Assembly (NCBI GenBank): GCA_963727525.1
Contig: CAVSGO010000003.1
Coordinates: 224,001-288,000 of the forward strand
Length of the DNA stretch: 64,000 nt
From: an uncultured bacterium
GTDB lineage: Bacteria; Krumholzibacteriota; Krumholzibacteriia; LZORAL124-64-63
Reading direction: 5' to 3'
Under the pieces are notes generated by a model that ran no database searches, had not been told where the DNA came from, and saw only the letters and a program-made list of their open reading frames with translations. This document shows positions 51,646 through 58,731 of this stretch, piece after piece. The translations under genes and the position numbers were made by a program. Position 1 is the stretch's first letter. Each line of letters begins with the position of its first letter.

Positions 51646-52725
51646 TTACCGATCCAGGACCGCGAGCAACTCCTCGATGTTCCAATGTTCGGCGATGGAA
51701 CGCACCGAATCCCCGTCGCTGTTGGCCCGGTCCGGGTCGGCGCCCGCGGCCAGCAGCCGCTTGACCATCTCGCGCTGGCCTTCGAACAGGGCCCACATGG
51801 CTGGTGTGTTGCCAGCCGCGCCGACCGGATCGATCTCTACCCCGGCAGCCAGTAGCCGCGCGACCAGGTCGCTGTTGCCACCGATGGCCGCCAGATGCAG
51901 CGGTGTCAGGCCCAGGCCGGACCGCAGCGACTGATGAGCGGGATCGGCGCCGGCGGCCAGCAGCTGCCGGCCGACACCGGCATGGGCACAACGCCCGGCG
52001 ATCATCAACGGTGTGAACCCGATGGGGTCGGTGGCGTCGACCAGGGCACCGGCTGACATCAGCAACGCCACGACGCCTTCATCGCCGGCGGCGGCGGCCC
52101 GGTGCAAGGGCGAGCGGTCCACGCTGTCCCGGGCATCGACATGGCCACCGGCGGCCAGGGCGGCGCGCAAGGCAGCGGTGTCGGCGTCGGCGATCGCCGT
52201 GAACACCGCCTGATCGGCGGGTGCGACCTGTCGGGCCAGGCCCAGGCGTTCGGCCAGCGGCTGCAGCAGGGCCTCGTGCCCCCGTCGCCGGGCGACGTCC
52301 AGGGCATTGCCATGGCCGACCAGCGACGGATCCGCGCCCACCTCGAGCAGCATGGTGGTTGTGGCCAGGTAGCCGTAGTAGGCGGCCCAGTTCAGTGCGG
52401 TGTCGCCGGCCTTGTCCCGTGCGTCGGGGTCGGCACCGTGCGCCAGGAGCGTGCGGCCGACAGCCGTATTGTCGTGTTCGGCCGCCAACATCAGAGCCGT
52501 CGCGTTGTAGTAGTCGGCGTCGCGGGTTTCGGGCGACGCCCCGGCGGTGAGCCAGGTTTCGACGGCGGCCGGGTCGCCCGCGCGTACAGCGGCCAGGAGC
52601 GAGTCGGCCACGGCCACTGCAGAGGGTGCAGACTCCGTATCACTGGCCGCGAAGGCCGCGCCGGCACTTCCCAGCGCGATGACCAGGAGGCCGCCCAGAA
52701 GAGCCCGCCGCCGATCCCGCCTCAA
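51646..52725 (-). CDS. Secreted ankyrin-repeat protein
   Basis: Signal peptide and multiple TALMLAA/TPLHLAA...GADP repeats. Confidence 0.88.
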   Translation of the reverse strand: MRRDRRRALLGGLLVIALGSAGAAFAASDTESAPSAVAVADSLLAAVRAGDPAAVETWLTAGASPETRDADYYNATALMLAAEHDNTAVGRTLLAHGADPDARDKAGDTALNWAAYYGYLATTTMLLEVGADPSLVGHGNALDVARRRGHEALLQPLAERLGLARQVAPADQAVFTAIADADTAALRAALAAGGHVDARDSVDRSPLHRAAAAGDEGVVALLMSAGALVDATDPIGFTPLMIAGRCAHAGVGRQLLAAGADPAHQSLRSGLGLTPLHLAAIGGNSDLVARLLAAGVEIDPVGAAGNTPAMWALFEGQREMVKRLLAAGADPDRANSDGDSVRSIAEHWNIEELLAVLDR

Positions 52726-53060
52726 GGGCTGACCCCAGACAAACAGAAACTGCCGAGTCCGATAAATTTCATGCCGAGATCTCCTGCTATTGTCCGCAGC
52801 GAATCACCGTGCCGGTGAAGATACGGGACCCATCCAGGAGATTCAACCGGATCCGCTGGCGCACCAGAGTCAGCCGTTCGTCGTTCCGCGGCGAGGGTAT
52901 CCAGCTCGTTCTACGGCCGGTCACGATCGGTTCCGTCAATGGAACGGTGCCGACCGAGCAGGGCGTCGTACGCGAATTCTCAGGTCTCGCCCTGGTGGGC
53001 GACCAACCCACGAGATCGTGATGATTGCGCGGGCGTGCGCGCCGTGACGTCGCACCGGAC

Positions 53061-53089
53061 TTGACTCCGGTCGCCAAAGGTCCGACAAT
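53061..53089 (+). promoter_or_regulatory. Sigma70 promoter of the tusA/dsrE/metE-like operon
   Basis: TTGACT-N17-GACAAT, with the same -35 hexamer as two other promoters in the window. Confidence 0.7.
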
Positions 53090-53119
53090 TCCAGAGGTCT
53101 CCGTCGACAGGAATGTTCC

Positions 53120-53206
53120 ATGCTCCGATTCCTCGTTGTCACCGGCTTCACCTGAGGCCGCCCGCTGGACGCCGCCCGGGTCTGGCAGGCGCGTCGTGTC
53201 GGCTAG
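53120..53206 (+). CDS. Putative selenocysteine-containing leader peptide MLRFLVVTGFT-U-GRPLDAARVWQARRVG (28 aa)
   Basis: RBS AGGA (53109-53112) 7 nt before ATG 53120. In-frame TGA at 53153-53155, then a SECIS-like hairpin, then TAG at 53204-53206. Not in the supplied ORF track. Confidence 0.55.
53168..53195 (+). promoter_or_regulatory. Bacterial SECIS-like hairpin (leader)
   Basis: Apical CCG-GGTC-TGG (loop 53179-53182) on a GC-rich stem, 23 nt after the UGA. The GGUC loop matches the E. coli fdhF SECIS (GCA-GGUC-UGC). Confidence 0.6.
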
Positions 53207-53313
53207 CTGACGAGGAAACCGTCTTCTCCCGCACACACCCCCCGCCCTTCCGATCCCGGCGTCCACCCCTGGGCGTGACCTCGAGGCACATCCTCCAACC
53301 GGGATCAGCGAGC

Positions 53314-53559
53314 ATGGCGGGCTATCCGCGACACTGGAATTTCGACGACGTCTACGACTCCGTCGACCGCGGCTGCGGCGATTTCATCATCGACCTGCGT
53401 CAGGTCGTGCGCGAGCTCGAGCCGGGTGCGGTACTGATGATCGCGAGCCGCGACGCCGGTGCGCCCGTGGAAATCCCGGCCTGGTGCCGCCTCACCGGTC
53501 ATACCCTCCTCGATGCTGAGCCTCCGTTCTACCTCGTGCGCAAGCGCGAGGGCACCTGA
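53314..53559 (+). CDS. TusA/SirA-family sulfur carrier
   Basis: 81 aa. 'D..DRGCGD...LEPGAVL.I...D.GA..EIPAWCRLTGH', with CG in place of the canonical CPxP. Confidence 0.85.
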   Translation: MAGYPRHWNFDDVYDSVDRGCGDFIIDLRQVVRELEPGAVLMIASRDAGAPVEIPAWCRLTGHTLLDAEPPFYLVRKREGT

Positions 53560-53583
53560 CCCTGTTTCCGAAAGGATAGCGAC

Positions 53584-53949
53584 ATGGCAAGCACATTCTG
53601 CGTCACGATCTCCGAATGCAAGACCAACGGCGACAAGGCGACCCTGGGTTTCGTGGTGGCGAATGCCGCCCTGGGCAGCGACAAGGACACGATGGTGTTC
53701 CTGAGTGCCGATGGCGTGTGGGCCGCAGTGAAGGGCGAGGTCGACAAGATCAATGAGGGCGACCCGTTCGCGCCCTTGAAGGACCTCGTGGAGAAGTTCG
53801 TGAAGAACGGTGGCAAGATCCTCGTCTGCTCGCCGTGCATGAAGAAGCGCGGGCTCACGGAGGCGAACCTGGTGGAAGGCGCGTCACCAGCCGGCGGCGC
53901 GGCGCTCGTGGAGTGGCTGTCCAATGGGTCGCCCAGCGTGGGGTACTAG
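53584..53949 (+). CDS. DsrE-family sulfur relay protein
   Basis: 121 aa. 'VFLSADGV', 'GGKILVCSPC.KKRG'. Confidence 0.88.
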   Translation: MASTFCVTISECKTNGDKATLGFVVANAALGSDKDTMVFLSADGVWAAVKGEVDKINEGDPFAPLKDLVEKFVKNGGKILVCSPCMKKRGLTEANLVEGASPAGGAALVEWLSNGSPSVGY

Positions 53950-53950
53950 C

Positions 53951-54698
53951 ATGAGCGATCTCGAGAGCCTGCGGCCCGATCACGTGTTCGACGGCGGCGA
54001 TCTCGACTGCGGCAGCGGTCTGGTGCTGCTCATCCGCGAGCACATGCAGAACGGTGCCCGAGGGCGGCGTGCTGGAGATGCGCAGCGTCGAGGTCACGGT
54101 GATCGACGACCTGCCACCTTGGTGCCGCATGGTAGGCCACGAGTACCTCGGCCACCTGCCGGGCCAGACAGCGCAGCAGAAGCGTTACTTCGTGCGCAAG
54201 GGTGGGGGCGAGGCTGCGCGGGCCGAGCAGCAGGCGCTCGAGGACGACAAGGCGCGCGCCCGCGAGTTCGAATGGCGACTGCGGGCGCGCGCGTCCGGCC
54301 ACCTGGCCACCACGGTCTACTGCCGCAACTTCCAGTGGACCCTGGGGCAGTCGGCAAGTTTCGAGGAGACGGACCAGCACCCGTCGGCGGTGGAGGCGCT
54401 GCTGGGTGCCGTCGCCGCCGATCTGGTCACGGGGTTCGGTACGGCGTGCGCCCAGGCCGGTCTCGATGTGGACGACGTGGAGCTCACCATCCGCGGGCGT
54501 TTGCACGATCCCATGGCCTTGCTGGGCCTTTCCGGCGGCGACCCGTCGCTCGCGTCCATCGACGCGAAGCTGTTCGCGTCCACGTTCGATGATGAGGACC
54601 GCGTGCGCGCGGTGTGGGACACGGTGGTGGCGCGTTCGCCCCTGGTGGCCACGCTGCGCAAGGCCACCGCGATGGAAACCAGGATCGCCATCGTCTGA
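53951..54698 (+). CDS. TusA-like + OsmC-like fusion protein, +1 frameshift near 54050-54054
   Basis: 'FDGGDLDCGSGLVLLIREHM' continues in the next frame as 'VPEGGVLEMRS...DLPPWCRMVGH'. C-terminal OsmC-like fold 'PSAVEALLGAVAAD...RSPL..TL'. Confidence 0.75.
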
Positions 54699-54709
54699 GG
54701 AGGACGACC

Positions 54710-55861
54710 ATGTTCAACGTGACCCAGGTGGGGAGCTGGCCCCGCTCCCGCGACCTGTTGAAAGCTCTGCGCGCCAAGCAGAAGGGTGGGCTGAGCCGCG
54801 CGGAGTTCGAACGCGTGGCCGACGCGGAGGTGCGTCGCTGCGTGCAGCATCAGGTGGACGCCGGGGTGGATGTGATCGTGGACGGCGAGCACCGTCGCGA
54901 CAACTTCTACAGCTTCGTCACCGACAAGCTCGACGGTACCCGCCTCATGTCCCTCGCCGAGATGCTCGATACGGTGGACGACAAGTCTGCCTTCGAGGAG
55001 ATGCTCTCCACCCTCGACGTACCGGCCTCGGCCATCCGCAACCCCACCTGCACCGGCAAGCTGGCCAGGCGCGAACCGCTGGCGGTGGAGGAGCTGCGCT
55101 TCGTGCAGCAGCTCACGGACAGGCCCGTGAAGGTGACGCTCCCGGGTCCGTACCTGCTCACGCGATCGATGTGGGTGGGCGCGTTCAGCAAGGCCGGCTA
55201 CGGCGACAAGACCGAGCTGGGCGACGACGTCGTGCGCATCCTGCGCGAGGAACTCACCGAGCTTCGCGATGCCGGCGCGGCCTTCGTGCAGTTCGACGAG
55301 CCAGTGCTCACCGAGATCGTGATGAGTGAGGACTGCGACCGCCGCACCTTCATGTGAGCGACGCTTGCGACCCGCCGTGATGCGGGTGCCGAGCTGGAAT
55401 ACGCGGCGGACCTGATCAACCGCATCGTCGAGGGCGTCGACGGGGTGCGCACCGGTGTGCACGTGTGCCGGGGCAACTGGAGCCGCCAGGAGGAGGTTCT
55501 GCTCACCGGAGACTACCACGCCCTGTTGCCGGCGTTCACCGCGATGCAGGTGCGTCAGTTCGTGCTGGAGTACGCCACGCCGCGCGCGGGCGAGCTGCGC
55601 GTGGTGGGCGAGAGCCTGTGCGATCGCGAGATCGGCCTGGGCTGCGTGAATCCCCGCACCGACGAGGCCGAGGACCCGGCCACCATCGTGGCGCGGGCCG
55701 AGGAGGCCCTGCAGTACTGGCGCCCGGAGCAGATCTGGCTGAATCCCGATTGCGGCTTCGGCTGCTTCGCCAACCGCTGCGTGAACGAGGAGAGCCACGC
55801 CGTGGCCAAGCTGCGCAGTATGGTGACGGCGTCGCGGATCTTGCGGGAAAGGCACGGTTGA
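54710..55861 (+). CDS. Cobalamin-independent methionine synthase II-like (MetE catalytic-domain) protein with in-frame UGA at codon 216, putative selenoprotein
   Basis: RBS GAGGAGG. Before the TGA (55355-55357): 'VGSWPR', 'DGEHRR', 'KVTLPGP', 'VQFDEP'. After it, same frame: Zn-ligand motifs 'HVCRGN', 'LEY', 'NPDCGF'. 383 aa on readthrough. Confidence 0.85.
55363..55394 (+). promoter_or_regulatory. Bacterial SECIS-like hairpin (metE-like gene)
   Basis: GCTT-GC-(G)-ACCCGC / loop CGTGAT / GCGGGT-GC-(C)-GAGC. The loop lies 18 nt after the UGA and has GU at positions 2-3. Confidence 0.65.
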
Positions 55862-55924
55862 AGGGATTGGGGCGCACCAGGCGGCCCGGCGCAATCGGCG
55901 ATGCACGCGATCGCCGCTGCGAGC

Positions 55925-57769
55925 TCAGATCTGCTTCCGGAACCAGAGCACGATCCCGTACCCGAAGACACCAAACACGACAGACACGATGATGAGCATC
56001 GCCAGATCAAACCCCGACCCCGAGAGTATCTCGATACCCCAGCGTCCGCCCAACCTGATCGCGTGATCGTCGACAAGGCCCTTGAGATTTCCGACGAGAT
56101 CGAAGCCGAACGTACCGATTGCGATCAACCCGAGAAGATATGCGAGTCGGTTGTCATTGCGCTTGGCAATTCGCGCTTCACGATCCTGCGTCTGCTTCTC
56201 GACGTTGTCGACCATCGCTTCGATCGCGGCGACGTTGCGCGCGATGCCGCGCCGCGCCTCGAGAGCCTCGAACGTGTCCTTTTCGGTGTCGTATCGAAAT
56301 ACGTTGATGTAGCGCTTCTGCTGATAGTCGCTGACCTGCCGCCTGCGGAAGGCGTAGAAGAGTTCGGTCGCTGCGCGGAGATCGTGCTTCTCGTCGGCGC
56401 GAATCACCTCCCGGAGCAGGGACGTGGCGCTCCGCTCGTAGGCGCGCACGAAGAACTCATTGTGCATCGCGAGAGCGTGGATGAGAAACGCGTAGGGGCA
56501 GGTCCCGATCCAGTCATTGCCGGCCTCGAGGCTGCGGGAGCGAGACACGAACGTCATCAGTGCGCGAGGATTCGCGAAACGAATGAAGAAGCTCTCCTCT
56601 TCCTGTTCGGCCGTCGCCGGGTAGATCGGATCGAGGCTGTCGAGGACCTCGGAAGCATCCTGATTGATGAAGTCGATGATATTCTGGGTGAAGCCTGCAA
56701 GGAACAGATAGATCAGGTCTTCCTTGGCGAACTTCTCGATCTCGGCAAGGGGAAGTTTGACACGGGCGAGCCCGGAAGACTGGGCCGCGTCGCGACAATC
56801 CGTGACGAACTCCGGATACCGATCGAACGCATCCATCGTGACGCGGTCCATCCGCCTCACGCGAATCGGTTCACCGTGTTCACCCGGCCGGGACGGCGGT
56901 ACCAGCGCCTCGAAAAACTCGCGATCCTGAAAGAAGAACATGTAACGAGCGCGCGGCATCATCAGGCCAGGTATCTCGAGGAACGCGTCTTTCTCGATGT
57001 ACAATTCGAACGGGCTCGTGGCGGGAGGTCGTGACGCCGATGAATTGCGGATCCGGCGTTCCAGGTCCGAGAAGTCACGGTCGAATCGGGATGCGACCCA
57101 CGCCCACAGCGAGATGGTCTGGCCGCCGACAGGTTCACGCACGCAGACCGAATCCAGAGGCAGGATATGCGTCGGACGCGCCAGGACATGGGAGGCGCGC
57201 CCGTGCCCGCCGTAGCGAAATTCCTTGGGGGCGACGGCTTTCTGGAGCAAGCCTAGGCGGTAGAAATCAGCCGCCGAGTGCTCGTACGGTACCGAAAACG
57301 ACAAGTGGTAGGAAAGCGCGTAGGCGAGATGGACGTACCAGAATCGCCGCGCCCGCACCATGCGCACGTCTGGCTCTTCGAGATCGACCTCGAACGTCGT
57401 GCCCTCCGTCGTCCAGGTGATGGACCGCGGCATGTGCAACTCGAGTTCCTCGCCTTCGGGACGCCCCGAAACGTCGAGCAGAAAATCCAGGACCCGACCG
57501 TTACGCTCGCGGTTGGCGATATCGTTGAATAGCGGGTCCATCGCTTCCTGCAGGTCGCGAGTTCCGAGATACTCGCGGGGCGCGGGTGCTCCAGGGGCCT
57601 TGCCGCTCGACGATGCTTTTGGCATCCCCGATCGCGCCGGATCGCGATTCTCCGCGCTGAGGAATTCCTGGAACGTCGCCGGGAGTTCGTCGTGTCCGAT
57701 GTATAGCGAAATCGTGAAAGATAGTGTCCTGTCCGTACAGCTTTCCCATATCAGGCGAGCCTCGCTCAT
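55925..57769 (-). CDS. Hypothetical protein with CorA-like architecture (large soluble domain, coiled coil, two C-terminal TM helices)
   Basis: RBS GGAGG. Long helix 'IEAMVDNVEKQTQDREARIAKRNDNRL' then two hydrophobic segments and a basic tail. No GMN motif. Confidence 0.6.
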   Translation of the reverse strand: MSEARLIWESCTDRTLSFTISLYIGHDELPATFQEFLSAENRDPARSGMPKASSSGKAPGAPAPREYLGTRDLQEAMDPLFNDIANRERNGRVLDFLLDVSGRPEGEELELHMPRSITWTTEGTTFEVDLEEPDVRMVRARRFWYVHLAYALSYHLSFSVPYEHSAADFYRLGLLQKAVAPKEFRYGGHGRASHVLARPTHILPLDSVCVREPVGGQTISLWAWVASRFDRDFSDLERRIRNSSASRPPATSPFELYIEKDAFLEIPGLMMPRARYMFFFQDREFFEALVPPSRPGEHGEPIRVRRMDRVTMDAFDRYPEFVTDCRDAAQSSGLARVKLPLAEIEKFAKEDLIYLFLAGFTQNIIDFINQDASEVLDSLDPIYPATAEQEEESFFIRFANPRALMTFVSRSRSLEAGNDWIGTCPYAFLIHALAMHNEFFVRAYERSATSLLREVIRADEKHDLRAATELFYAFRRRQVSDYQQKRYINVFRYDTEKDTFEALEARRGIARNVAAIEAMVDNVEKQTQDREARIAKRNDNRLAYLLGLIAIGTFGFDLVGNLKGLVDDHAIRLGGRWGIEILSGSGFDLAMLIIVSVVFGVFGYGIVLWFRKQI

Positions 57770-57813
57770 GGGCGCCTCCACAGGTGTCGCTAATTCTGGC
57801 GGTCCAACAGTCA

Positions 57814-58731
57814 TCATCCGAGCGCATGAATCGCGTCGCGCAGATTGACCGGACGCCGAGGCGCGATCCGGCCGATACCGTCCGCTGTCGCGACACGCGC
57901 CAGAAGCATCGTCGGGTCGAGAAGGGGGATCTCCGTACCCGCGACGCACATGTCCGAGAGTAATTCGACCTGACGCCGCGCGACATCGCTATTCTCGATC
58001 GCCGCGCCCTTCAAGACCGAGATGCCGAAGAAGCCGCGGAGATGGTGTTCGAGGATGCACGCCGGCACGGTGGTTGCGGGTGCACCGACAACGGAATATA
58101 CCAGATGCGACTCGGCCACCTGCCCGGGCGAGAGCGGCGGCTGGATATAGGGAAAGTCCACGACACGGGCTCCGCGCCGGGCCCAGACACGCAGGCGATC
58201 GAATTGATCGAGGCCGGTGTACCTCGTGTCGCGCTCATAGGCTTCGGCGCTCATCGCAAACGGATCGTTTTGCTCGATGAACATCAAAGGACGTGTCTCG
58301 AATCGGGCCGAGATCGTCTGGCGAACGGCCGCGAGCATGGGCGTGAATCGGCCAGAGCCGCGGGCCGCCTCATCGATGTAGATGTAGTTGAGGTTTGCCG
58401 TGATAGCATGCTGGTACGCGATGGTGATGACGTTGGCACCACCGACACGAAGACCCGCCGCGATGTCATCGGCAACGAGGCAGATCTCGCTAAACGCACC
58501 GTACTTGGCCGCAAGTTCCTCGTATGCCGGCGAATCGTTCAATGCCAGGCACCGCTCGAAGCCGCTGACATCTTCCTTCTCGTCGGGGAGGACGAAAGCT
58601 CGATCGTAGCCGGCGTAGAATTCCGCGAAGACCTCGCTGCCCGGCTGGCTGGTCGCGTAAACCCGAAGGCCCTCTGCCGTCGTCAAGGCCCAGTCGCCAG
58701 CTGCGAGTCGCAGCGGTCTGGCGTGCGTCAT
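57814..58731 (-). CDS. GNAT-fold acetyltransferase-like protein
   Basis: 'AFVLPDEKE', 'NLNYIYIDEAARGSG' (motif A-like), 'R.RVWARRG...FPYIQPPL'. Confidence 0.65.
   Translation of the reverse strand: MTHARPLRLAAGDWALTTAEGLRVYATSQPGSEVFAEFYAGYDRAFVLPDEKEDVSGFERCLALNDSPAYEELAAKYGAFSEICLVADDIAAGLRVGGANVITIAYQHAITANLNYIYIDEAARGSGRFTPMLAAVRQTISARFETRPLMFIEQNDPFAMSAEAYERDTRYTGLDQFDRLRVWARRGARVVDFPYIQPPLSPGQVAESHLVYSVVGAPATTVPACILEHHLRGFFGISVLKGAAIENSDVARRQVELLSDMCVAGTEIPLLDPTMLLARVATADGIGRIAPRRPVNLRDAIHALG

Follow-up and report, generated by a model that had tools for sequence, protein, structure and literature searches.

Does a small operon in an uncultured bacterium encode a selenocysteine (Sec)-containing relative of methionine synthase, and is its expression tuned to the supply of that amino acid? 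The question is raised by positions 53061–55861 of a 64,000-nt stretch of the Krumholzibacteriota contig CAVSGO010000003.1 (assembly GCA_963727525.1), the whole of which is called the window below. An earlier note, made from the letters of this DNA, had described there a single promoter, a leader and genes for a TusA, a DsrE, a TusA-OsmC and a MetE-like protein. In-frame UGA codons had been placed at 53153, in the leader, and at 55355, in the MetE-like gene, and both were found at these positions. Comparison with related genomes indicates that the MetE-like gene very probably belongs to a true selenoprotein family that is widespread and, it appears, has not been listed before, and which lies inside a conserved TusA/DsrE/OsmC-like module.

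The MetE-like gene (54710–55861, plus strand) codes for a predicted core-MetE-like selenoprotein of 383 aa when the TGA at 55355–55357, codon 216, is read through. The readthrough product matched PF01717 with 115 bits (cut-off 21) over residues 4–375, which covers profile positions 3–322 of 324. A word-index search returned thousands of MetE-like homologues, and the full-length set consisted of 117 proteins of 370–420 aa. Column 216 is occupied by Cys in 116 of these 117, within a conserved TFMC motif, and the remaining homologue has a 6-residue deletion at this column. The DNA set was made up of 28 loci from species-representative genomes, 12 from the phylum of the window and the window itself, that is, 41 sequences from 40 distinct places, and TGA was present at codon 216 in all 41. 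The frame past this codon is open and strongly conserved, both in residues 217–237, directly after the TGA, and through the 30 codons ahead of the next possible start. The comparison of TGA with Cys at codon 216 that the earlier note had proposed thus came out in favor of selenocysteine. When only the first 215 residues were used as the query, the best 120 short matches (80–100% identity) all ended in RTFM, and 108 of them were exactly 215 aa long, on contigs that often reached tens to hundreds of kb. These proteins end in RTFM because gene callers cut them at the same codon.

A hairpin resembling a selenocysteine insertion sequence (SECIS) lies at 55371–55388, with a stem of 6–7 bp (ACCCGC/GCGGGU) and the loop CGUGAU, and begins 16 nt after the U of the UGA. 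It was more stable than shuffled sequences (z −2.76; 1 of 200 shuffles as good). In published models of bacterial SECIS elements the apical loop lies about 16–37 nt after the UGA, and the loop of the MetE-like gene, which begins 21–24 nt from the U in 41/41 Sec-form sequences, falls inside this range. Two sequence versions of the hairpin were observed: ACCCGC/CGUGAY/GCGGGU in most lineages, and a longer stem with the loop RGAUGCA in a Bacteroidales group, the latter accompanied by amino-acid changes. The stem was missing from all five Cys-form DNA sequences, which have TGT or TGC at this codon. The minimum free energy of the 45 nt past the codon was dropped as a discriminator between the two forms (Sec mean −16.2; two Cys forms −12.7 and −17.2).

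The selenocysteine machinery was also located in the genome of the window, where selA, selB, selC and selD, which the earlier note had wanted looked for, were all found. The tRNA-Sec scored 70.4 bits and has a TCA anticodon according to ARAGORN, and selA, selB and selD scored 462, 302 and 365 bits, respectively. Moreover, selA was present in all ten of the other Sec-form genomes tested. The selD gene of the window's genome (G000 contig 8, L018) is itself that of a selenoprotein, with an in-frame TGA in the N-terminal motif KSAG-U-AAKL and, 3′ of it, a hairpin whose small loop is rich in G.

In a FastTree phylogeny of 153 proteins, the Sec and Cys forms were clustered: one clade, of 82 rows, is all Cys, a second is mostly Cys (33, with one Sec) and a third mostly Sec (35, plus 2), and a minimum of four Sec/Cys changes is required. 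Judged by this tree, the distribution is the usual pattern of Sec/Cys families. The family would also resemble known ones in having Cys in place of UGA in its homologues, a hairpin within the gene and the Sec machinery in the genome. Within the Sec clade, the full-length protein P0002 (JGI, 377 aa) carries a 6-residue deletion that takes out exactly RTFM-C/U-A. A flag of one TGA raised for G040 was rejected, as that TGA is off the Sec position and the gene has Cys at position 216. In L043, L048 and L050 the MetE-like gene is split over several frames, as is the fusion gene of L043, through assembly indels or decay. A global recoding of TGA was also rejected, since TGA is the ordinary stop of three operon genes. 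Cys in the homologues, TGA in the orthologues, the hairpin and the Sec machinery all agree, and the Sec-containing MetE-like enzyme of the earlier note is in this way well supported by comparative evidence.

The selenoprotein gene is the last of four. A TusA-family protein of 81 aa (53314–53559), a DsrE-family protein of 121 aa (53584–53949) and a TusA-like/OsmC fusion (53951–54698) are encoded ahead of it on the same strand, and the gaps between the four genes are 24, 1 and 11 nt. The positions and tight packing given by the earlier note were right, but it had overlooked a break in the reading frame of the third gene. In this assembly, the first 33 codons (from 53951) are parted from the rest of the gene (from 54054) by a single surplus base at 54050–54053. 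In 33 of 35 copies the orthologue is a single intact ORF (open reading frame) of 243–248 aa, and programmed frameshifting was rejected, given that the extra base occurs in none of the other copies. The metH, selA and selB genes of the same genome have no internal stops; therefore, indel errors are not rampant in it.

The gene order TusA, DsrE, TusA-like/OsmC, MetE-like was observed in 24 of the 28 loci and in 10 of the 12 further ones. Counting the window, it was found in 34 of the 39 distinct Sec-form loci that were assessable, so the gene-neighborhood conservation that the earlier note suggested checking was confirmed. The Sec-form loci carry the labels Planctomycetota, Krumholzibacteriia, Latescibacterota, Anaerolineales, Bacteroidales, Eisenbacteria, Armatimonadota, Verrucomicrobiia and Desulfobulbaceae, among others. 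No widely shared flanking gene beyond the four was detected in the 28 loci, where the other clusters were antisense shadow ORFs; therefore, the module behaves as a mobile unit. Its distribution is patchy in the window's own lineage as well. In a deep search of the phylum the MetE-like gene was found in 16 of 90 genomes, and its absence from all 24 family members taken at one genome per genus is a sampling effect, not a true absence.

The four-gene module was present in none of the five Cys-form loci, in all of which no TusA or DsrE gene adjoins the enzyme. Their partners are instead a stand-alone OsmC-like gene, homologous to the OsmC domain of the fusion, and cytoplasmic substrate-binding-protein (SBP)-like and acyl-CoA-dehydrogenase-like genes. 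All five Cys-form loci thus have an OsmC-like partner, as do the 34 Sec-form loci that bear the module. Therefore, the OsmC-like partner is common to both forms and the TusA and DsrE genes travel with the Sec form. L041, the sole Sec form nested in the mostly-Cys clade, has both sets of partners. This different cluster, with OsmC-like, acyl-CoA-dehydrogenase-like and cytoplasmic SBP-like genes followed by the MetE-like gene, was seen at L216, L217, L218, L041, L021 and L022. The best NCBIfam name for its acyl-CoA-dehydrogenase-like protein, which is also SfnB/DszC-like, was “Rv1679 family”, and that for its SBP-like protein was “Rv1680 family”, both below the cut-off. A literature search on Rv1679, Rv1680 and Rv1681 yielded nothing functional.

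Selenium genes adjoin the module at three loci. In L035 (1688–3432), yedF (TIGR03527, 198 bits) and selD (TIGR00476, 370 bits) lie directly upstream of it, and L037 and L043 have homologues of the L035 selD-like ORF at the corresponding place; all three are Bacteroidales metagenome-assembled genomes (MAGs). This adjacency of yedF and selD links the module, as far as gene order can tell, to selenium metabolism.

The accessory proteins were characterized through their domains and conserved cysteines. The first gene matched PF01206 (32.2 bits; cut-off 28.6), with Cys21 and Cys58 invariant in 32 copies, and the DsrE protein matched PF02635 (59 bits; cut-off 22.7), with a C82-x-P-C85 motif invariant in 34 copies. 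Both scored below the NCBIfam equivalog cut-offs for YedF and TusA. The TusA protein of the window also gave a weak match to the “Rv1681 family radical SAM” model. In the third gene, the OsmC part named by the earlier note was recovered by Pfam (PF02566, 29.8 bits in the window and 37.5 bits in L024; cut-off 27.5). No TusA match was obtained by Pfam for the N-terminal domain, whose TusA-like nature comes from its 25–37% identity to the first gene (tblastn) alone. The conserved cysteines of the fusion are Cys20, Cys58 and Cys124, and it scored 16.6 bits against NF041052 (OsmC_like_Se; cut-off 95). TusA domains are classically persulfide carriers. A TusA-fold and a DsrE-fold protein with conserved Cys recall the YedF/SelD and TusA/DsrE relays, from which this operon differs by a second TusA-like domain fused to an OsmC-like domain without the usual Cys pair.

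What could such an enzyme do? The best fold matches of the AlphaFold model in Foldseek were core and canonical MetE (3rpd, 1xpg; template modelling score 0.74). Sec216 lies in an insertion of about 12 residues after the DEP strand, which is missing from the MetE structure 4ztx, and the predicted local distance difference test score is below 50 for residues 202–221 (mean of the model, 85). In this model the MetE barrel is otherwise intact, and the Sec-bearing segment above it is probably a mobile loop. S9, E60 and D196 are invariant and the GS, DGE and DEP motifs are kept, which we take to hold the amino-acid end of homocysteine in MetE structures. The zinc motif H251, C253, E287 and C348 is also invariant; an excerpt of PMC10861871 gives H-x-C ... 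E ... C as the zinc-binding motif of PF01717 enzymes. Cys114, Sec216, Cys253 and Cys348 are 100% conserved, and Cys44, Cys352 and Cys357 about 90%. Residues 348–357 (55751–55780) read C-G-F-G-C-F-A-N-R-C in the Sec clade and the Cys forms closest to it, with two extra cysteines beside the last zinc ligand, and G-T-F-x-x-R-P in the distant all-Cys clade.

The closest characterized proteins are the single-barrel cobalamin-independent methionine synthases, or core-MetE (PF01717; MesA-D, Price et al., 2021, PMC7857596; 3rpd, 1ypx, 4ztx). The enzyme shares with them the fold, the full-length PF01717 match, the zinc and GS/DGE/DEP motifs, a size of about 380 aa and the lack of a folate-binding N-terminal barrel. 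Unlike them, it has the 12-residue insertion bearing Cys or Sec216, the invariant Cys114 and, in the Sec clade, Cys352 and Cys357, and its partners are TusA, DsrE and OsmC proteins, those of core-MetE being corrinoid proteins or DUF1852. The terms selenocysteine, TusA, DsrE and OsmC were searched for in PMC7857596, and none of them turned up there.

Since the zinc ligands and the homocysteine-holding residues are kept, methyl (or alkyl) transfer to or from the sulfur or selenium of a homocysteine-like amino acid would be the likeliest chemistry. The selenolate, together with the invariant Cys114, may then serve as an additional nucleophile or as redox partner, and TusA, DsrE and the TusA-like/OsmC protein as a sulfur/selenium relay or as re-reduction partners of the enzyme. 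This assignment, in which a homocysteine-type substrate would undergo S/Se-methyl transfer, the selenolate would be the second nucleophile and the Cys proteins would be relay or re-reduction partners, is put forward tentatively, at somewhat less than an even chance of being right. In the genome of the window a MetH is present and no PF01717 gene other than this one was found. Therefore, the MetE-like protein would be an accessory enzyme.

Three Sec-form loci have neighbors of note. Methionine-cycle genes surround the gammaproteobacterial L045 (48–9438), namely those for an S-adenosylhomocysteine hydrolase, a homocysteine S-methyltransferase (PF02574) and a phosphorylase (PNP_UDP_1), together with DsrE-like and SBP-like genes; for homocysteine methylation, these methionine-cycle neighbors would be indirect support. 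L049 has an ArsM-like S-adenosylmethionine methyltransferase and a DsrE-like gene, and L047 a second, distant MetE-like paralogue downstream.

The second UGA of the operon lies in its leader. A sigma-70-like promoter (TTGACT, 17 nt spacer, GACAAT) at 53061–53089 of the plus strand was the only promoter-like site in 52700–56100 (mean of 0.3 in shuffles), in agreement with the single promoter that had been reported, and its −35 and −10 positions are kept across the aligned leaders of the same type. It is followed by an upstream ORF (uORF; 53120–53206) with an AGGA Shine-Dalgarno (SD)-like site 7–8 nt ahead of its ATG (53120). After 11 codons comes the UGA (53153–53155) and, 16 codons later, a TAG (53204–53206). 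A hairpin of 12 pairs (53160–53190, apical loop 53174–53177), SECIS-like by geometry only, follows the UGA and ends about 120 nt before the TusA start; a C-rich, G-poor spacer (53207–53313; C 0.45, G 0.23) leads to the first gene.

This arrangement, referred to as type 1, was found in eight loci including the window, with an invariant block around CTTCACCTGA and the 12-pair hairpin. All eight have the SD-like site and an in-frame ATG, 8–11 codons ahead of the UGA, with the second stop 15–17 codons past the latter. The conservation is at the nucleotide level, wobble positions included, and the block is near-invariant in a 5′ region of 49% mean identity. Across the eight sequences 79.6% of the cells of the hairpin alignment pair, compared with 24–44% when the partners are slid. 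In 6/6 genomes the type-1 motif occurred once, always ahead of this selenoprotein operon. When a loosened leader pattern was run across metagenomes, none among the 80 matches listed had the full motif or a nearby operon gene, and they were taken as chance matches.

A second type was found in six loci of a sister clade, where the SD-like site is followed by a 9-codon ORF ending in RRRL-UGA. One hairpin holds the UGA in its loop and a near-invariant 7-bp hairpin stands 14 nt past it. Readthrough would add 14–22 codons, up to a stop inside a third GC hairpin (H3) or at most 11 nt before it, and a U/C-rich stretch comes next. Three compensatory pairs were detected in H3. The peptides of the two types are unrelated, and the architecture is common to both: in 14/14 leaders an SD-like site is present, an in-frame ATG precedes the UGA by 8–11 codons, and the UGA is followed by a hairpin and, 14–22 codons on, by a second stop. 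Therefore, with unrelated peptides in the same layout, the layout itself looks selected. The leader spacers contain more C than G in 13 of the 14 loci, and the coding DNA of the operons at least as much G as C in 11 of 14, L023 and L025 being among those with C above G. Two members of the type-1 clade depart from the layout: L201 has a promoter directly ahead of TusA and no mini-ORF, and L202 keeps the SD and the ATG and has lost the UGA and hairpin, leaving a 27-codon ORF without TGA. On this comparison the leader with its UGA mini-ORF is genuinely conserved, in two clades. The leader proposed by the earlier note was thus upheld as a UGA-containing uORF that recurs in 14 loci, and gained little from covariation.

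Leader-peptide attenuation of the trp/his type, or of the Rho-dependent tnaC type, depends on the progress of a ribosome on a short leader ORF, set by the supply of one aminoacyl-tRNA. A similar mechanism may operate here. Transcription from the sigma-70 promoter would first cross a translated mini-ORF of 8–11 codons ending in UGA and the hairpin. With Sec-tRNA and SelB present, the ribosome would read through 14–22 more codons, to a stop in or just before the terminator-like hairpin (type 2) or the C-rich tract (type 1, including the window), and transcription would continue. Lack of Sec would halt the ribosome early and lead to attenuation of the operon, by a terminator in type 2 and perhaps by Rho in type 1. 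The short 5′ ORF, the far stop in or beside a terminator-like hairpin in type 2 and the C-rich tract after the leader in type 1 would recall the trp, his and tnaC leaders; the difference is that a run of sense codons is sensed in those, and here the sensed codon would be one UGA, dependent on SelB and a SECIS-like hairpin. A Sec-sensing role of this kind is close to an even proposition, falling slightly on the doubtful side.

The whole reading, of a mobile, horizontally spread four-gene module with a new Sec216 MetE-like enzyme, S/Se methyl chemistry and a Sec-sensing leader in two clades, appears probable from the comparative data. Several results tell against it. The TusA module is missing at five Sec-form loci (L045, L047, L049, L209 and L210), the exceptions being three gammaproteobacterial loci and two of the window's class, and selA was also present in 2/2 Cys-form genomes. 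All nine NCBIfam methionine-synthase matches of the enzyme were far below their cut-offs (best NF003317, 181 bits against 406), and with MetH in the window's genome a methionine-synthase role is not required. OsmC/Ohr proteins have two catalytic cysteines, and the OsmC domain of the fusion lacks a conserved Cys pair, a single Cys (position 124) being kept in 88%. In the leader, no compensatory change was observed in the type-1 hairpin among the eight sequences. The earlier note had seen a SECIS-like hairpin after each UGA; this was upheld for the MetE-like gene, but the leader hairpin of the window was no more stable than shuffles (z −0.81; 37 of 200 as good), the whole window leader reaching z −1.71 (6 of 200). 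The support for the window's own leader hairpin is derived solely from conservation in other genomes. Its loop is unlike those of the MetE-like and SelD SECIS elements of this genome, and the sequence following the type-1 leader showed no terminator-like hairpin. Finally, neither leader type occurs outside its own single clade in the operon tree; therefore, the 14 leaders represent about two evolutionary events. By the screens used, 19 of the 33 assessable modules (of 34; L203, cut 172 nt upstream, was left out) have no such leader, L201 and L202 among them.

These points bear differently on the competing explanations. If the TGA at codon 216 were a true stop, the gene being split, a pseudogene or a sequencing error with no selenocysteine made, the public gene calls that end the protein at 215 aa would be correct, and at least one frameshift does lie nearby in this assembly, in the third gene. 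The same TGA in 41/41 sequences of many lineages, the open and strongly conserved frame downstream, Cys in 116/117 homologues, the hairpin and the complete Sec machinery make this extremely improbable, and the comparative data effectively refute it. The function of the readthrough enzyme is less constrained. The accessory proteins may serve thiol-disulfide or selenenylsulfide re-reduction, or protection of Sec and Cys114, or the enzyme may belong to organosulfur or organoselenium catabolism. Such roles would suit the invariant C-x-P-C of the DsrE protein, which resembles the UxxC of a known DsrE-like selenoprotein (PMC13188914). They would also suit the OsmC-like partner found beside Sec and Cys forms alike, the SfnB/DszC-related acyl-CoA-dehydrogenase-like and cytoplasmic SBP-like genes of the Cys clusters, and a genome already provided with MetH. 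The classical persulfide-carrying role of TusA domains, the yedF-selD adjacency at three loci, which points to selenium handling, an OsmC domain devoid of the peroxidatic Cys pair and the retained homocysteine-binding residues of MetE all count against these roles, and we regard re-reduction or catabolism as rather unlikely, yet as serious competitors.

For the leader, the Sec-sensing mini-ORF has to be weighed against two other accounts. The hairpin may be an RNA operator that binds SelB or another factor, or a riboswitch-like element, with the uORF and its UGA incidental. The conservation of wobble positions would fit an operator, as would the radical amino-acid changes past the UGA (V/D, W/R, Q/L/H/P) at sites where pairing is kept, and a precedent exists, an excerpt of bioRxiv 10.64898/2026.03.03.709296 describing a SECIS-like operator bound by SelB in the 5′ untranslated region (UTR) of E. 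coli selAB. In that excerpt, the operator lies 3 nt from the SD site, whereas here some 90 nt or more separate the hairpin from the SD site of the first gene. An operator would also leave unexplained why the SD-like site and in-frame ATG stand 8–11 codons before the UGA in 14/14 leaders, though the intervening peptide varies in sequence and length, and why two leader types of unrelated sequence share one order of ATG, UGA, hairpin and second stop; an Rfam search of 52000–57000 at E ≤ 1 matched no family. These arguments leave the operator an unlikely explanation. Quite improbable, too, is a clade-specific conserved 5′ UTR with no selenium role, in which a TGA-ending ORF and a GC-rich hairpin coincide by descent and chance. 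GC-rich sequence folds well anyway, and the unremarkable stability of the window hairpin, the origin in only about two independent lineages, and the 19 modules, L201 and L202 among them, that manage without the leader would all be expected of it. It would not account for an invariant UGA/hairpin block standing out from a poorly conserved 5′ region, for the same layout in a different sequence in the sister clade, or for a motif unique in each of six genomes and always before this operon.

Among selenium-dependent controls, the Sec-sensing leader would resemble the selAB operator and the fdhF-Sec gene of Treponema primitia, for which an excerpt of PMC3892789 describes selenium-dependent premature truncation of the transcript at the UGA/SECIS; as far as these excerpts go, a SECIS-type hairpin or UGA would in each case tie expression to Sec availability. 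It would differ from the former, as excerpted, in that its hairpin is not beside the SD site of the regulated gene, and from the latter in that the UGA and hairpin form a dedicated mini-ORF ahead of three UGA-free genes, outside the selenoprotein gene. DsrE-like, OsmC-like and arsenite methyltransferase selenoproteins are among the known families (PMC9312934, PMC13188914), from which the DsrE and OsmC proteins of this operon differ in being Cys or non-Cys forms. The main texts of these two surveys (2022 and 2026, respectively) do not mention methionine synthase, MetE, PF01717, homocysteine, COG0620, TusA, uORF or leader, though their supplementary tables may list the family. No NCBIfam model specific to the MetE-like selenoprotein family was found. 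A literature search among papers available outside subscription did not find the gene combination, the selenoprotein family or the UGA leader described, in accordance with the earlier note, to whose author no description of the combination was known.

If read correctly, these data add a widespread selenoprotein family in an unexpected host, a methionine-synthase-type zinc enzyme and not a thiol oxidoreductase, which is currently invisible in annotation, as gene callers stop at 215 aa. The association of TusA, DsrE and OsmC-like proteins, and in some genomes yedF-selD, with a defined selenoenzyme may offer a handle on the poorly understood selenium trafficking of bacteria. Should Sec supply indeed be sensed by the UGA mini-ORF, this would make it an attenuator of a new kind, the first tuned to the 21st amino acid, and a natural selenium-responsive switch. 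A more ambitious combination, in which a Sec-sensing leader peptide gates the operon and the loop selenolate of the zinc enzyme is the methyl (or S/Se) carrier, taking the supernucleophile role that cobalamin has in MetH, fed or recycled by the TusA/DsrE/OsmC-like relay, is conceivable and improbable in all its parts at once. The natural Sec/Cys pairs and the leader variants (L201, leaderless; L202, without UGA and hairpin) constitute ready-made controls for experiments.

Outside the operon, both flanking genes are divergent. A 359-aa ORF on the minus strand at 51646–52725 encodes a candidate ankyrin-repeat protein with a signal-like N-terminus, and a 674-aa ORF at 55925–57949, also on the minus strand, encodes a protein with a C-terminal membrane segment.

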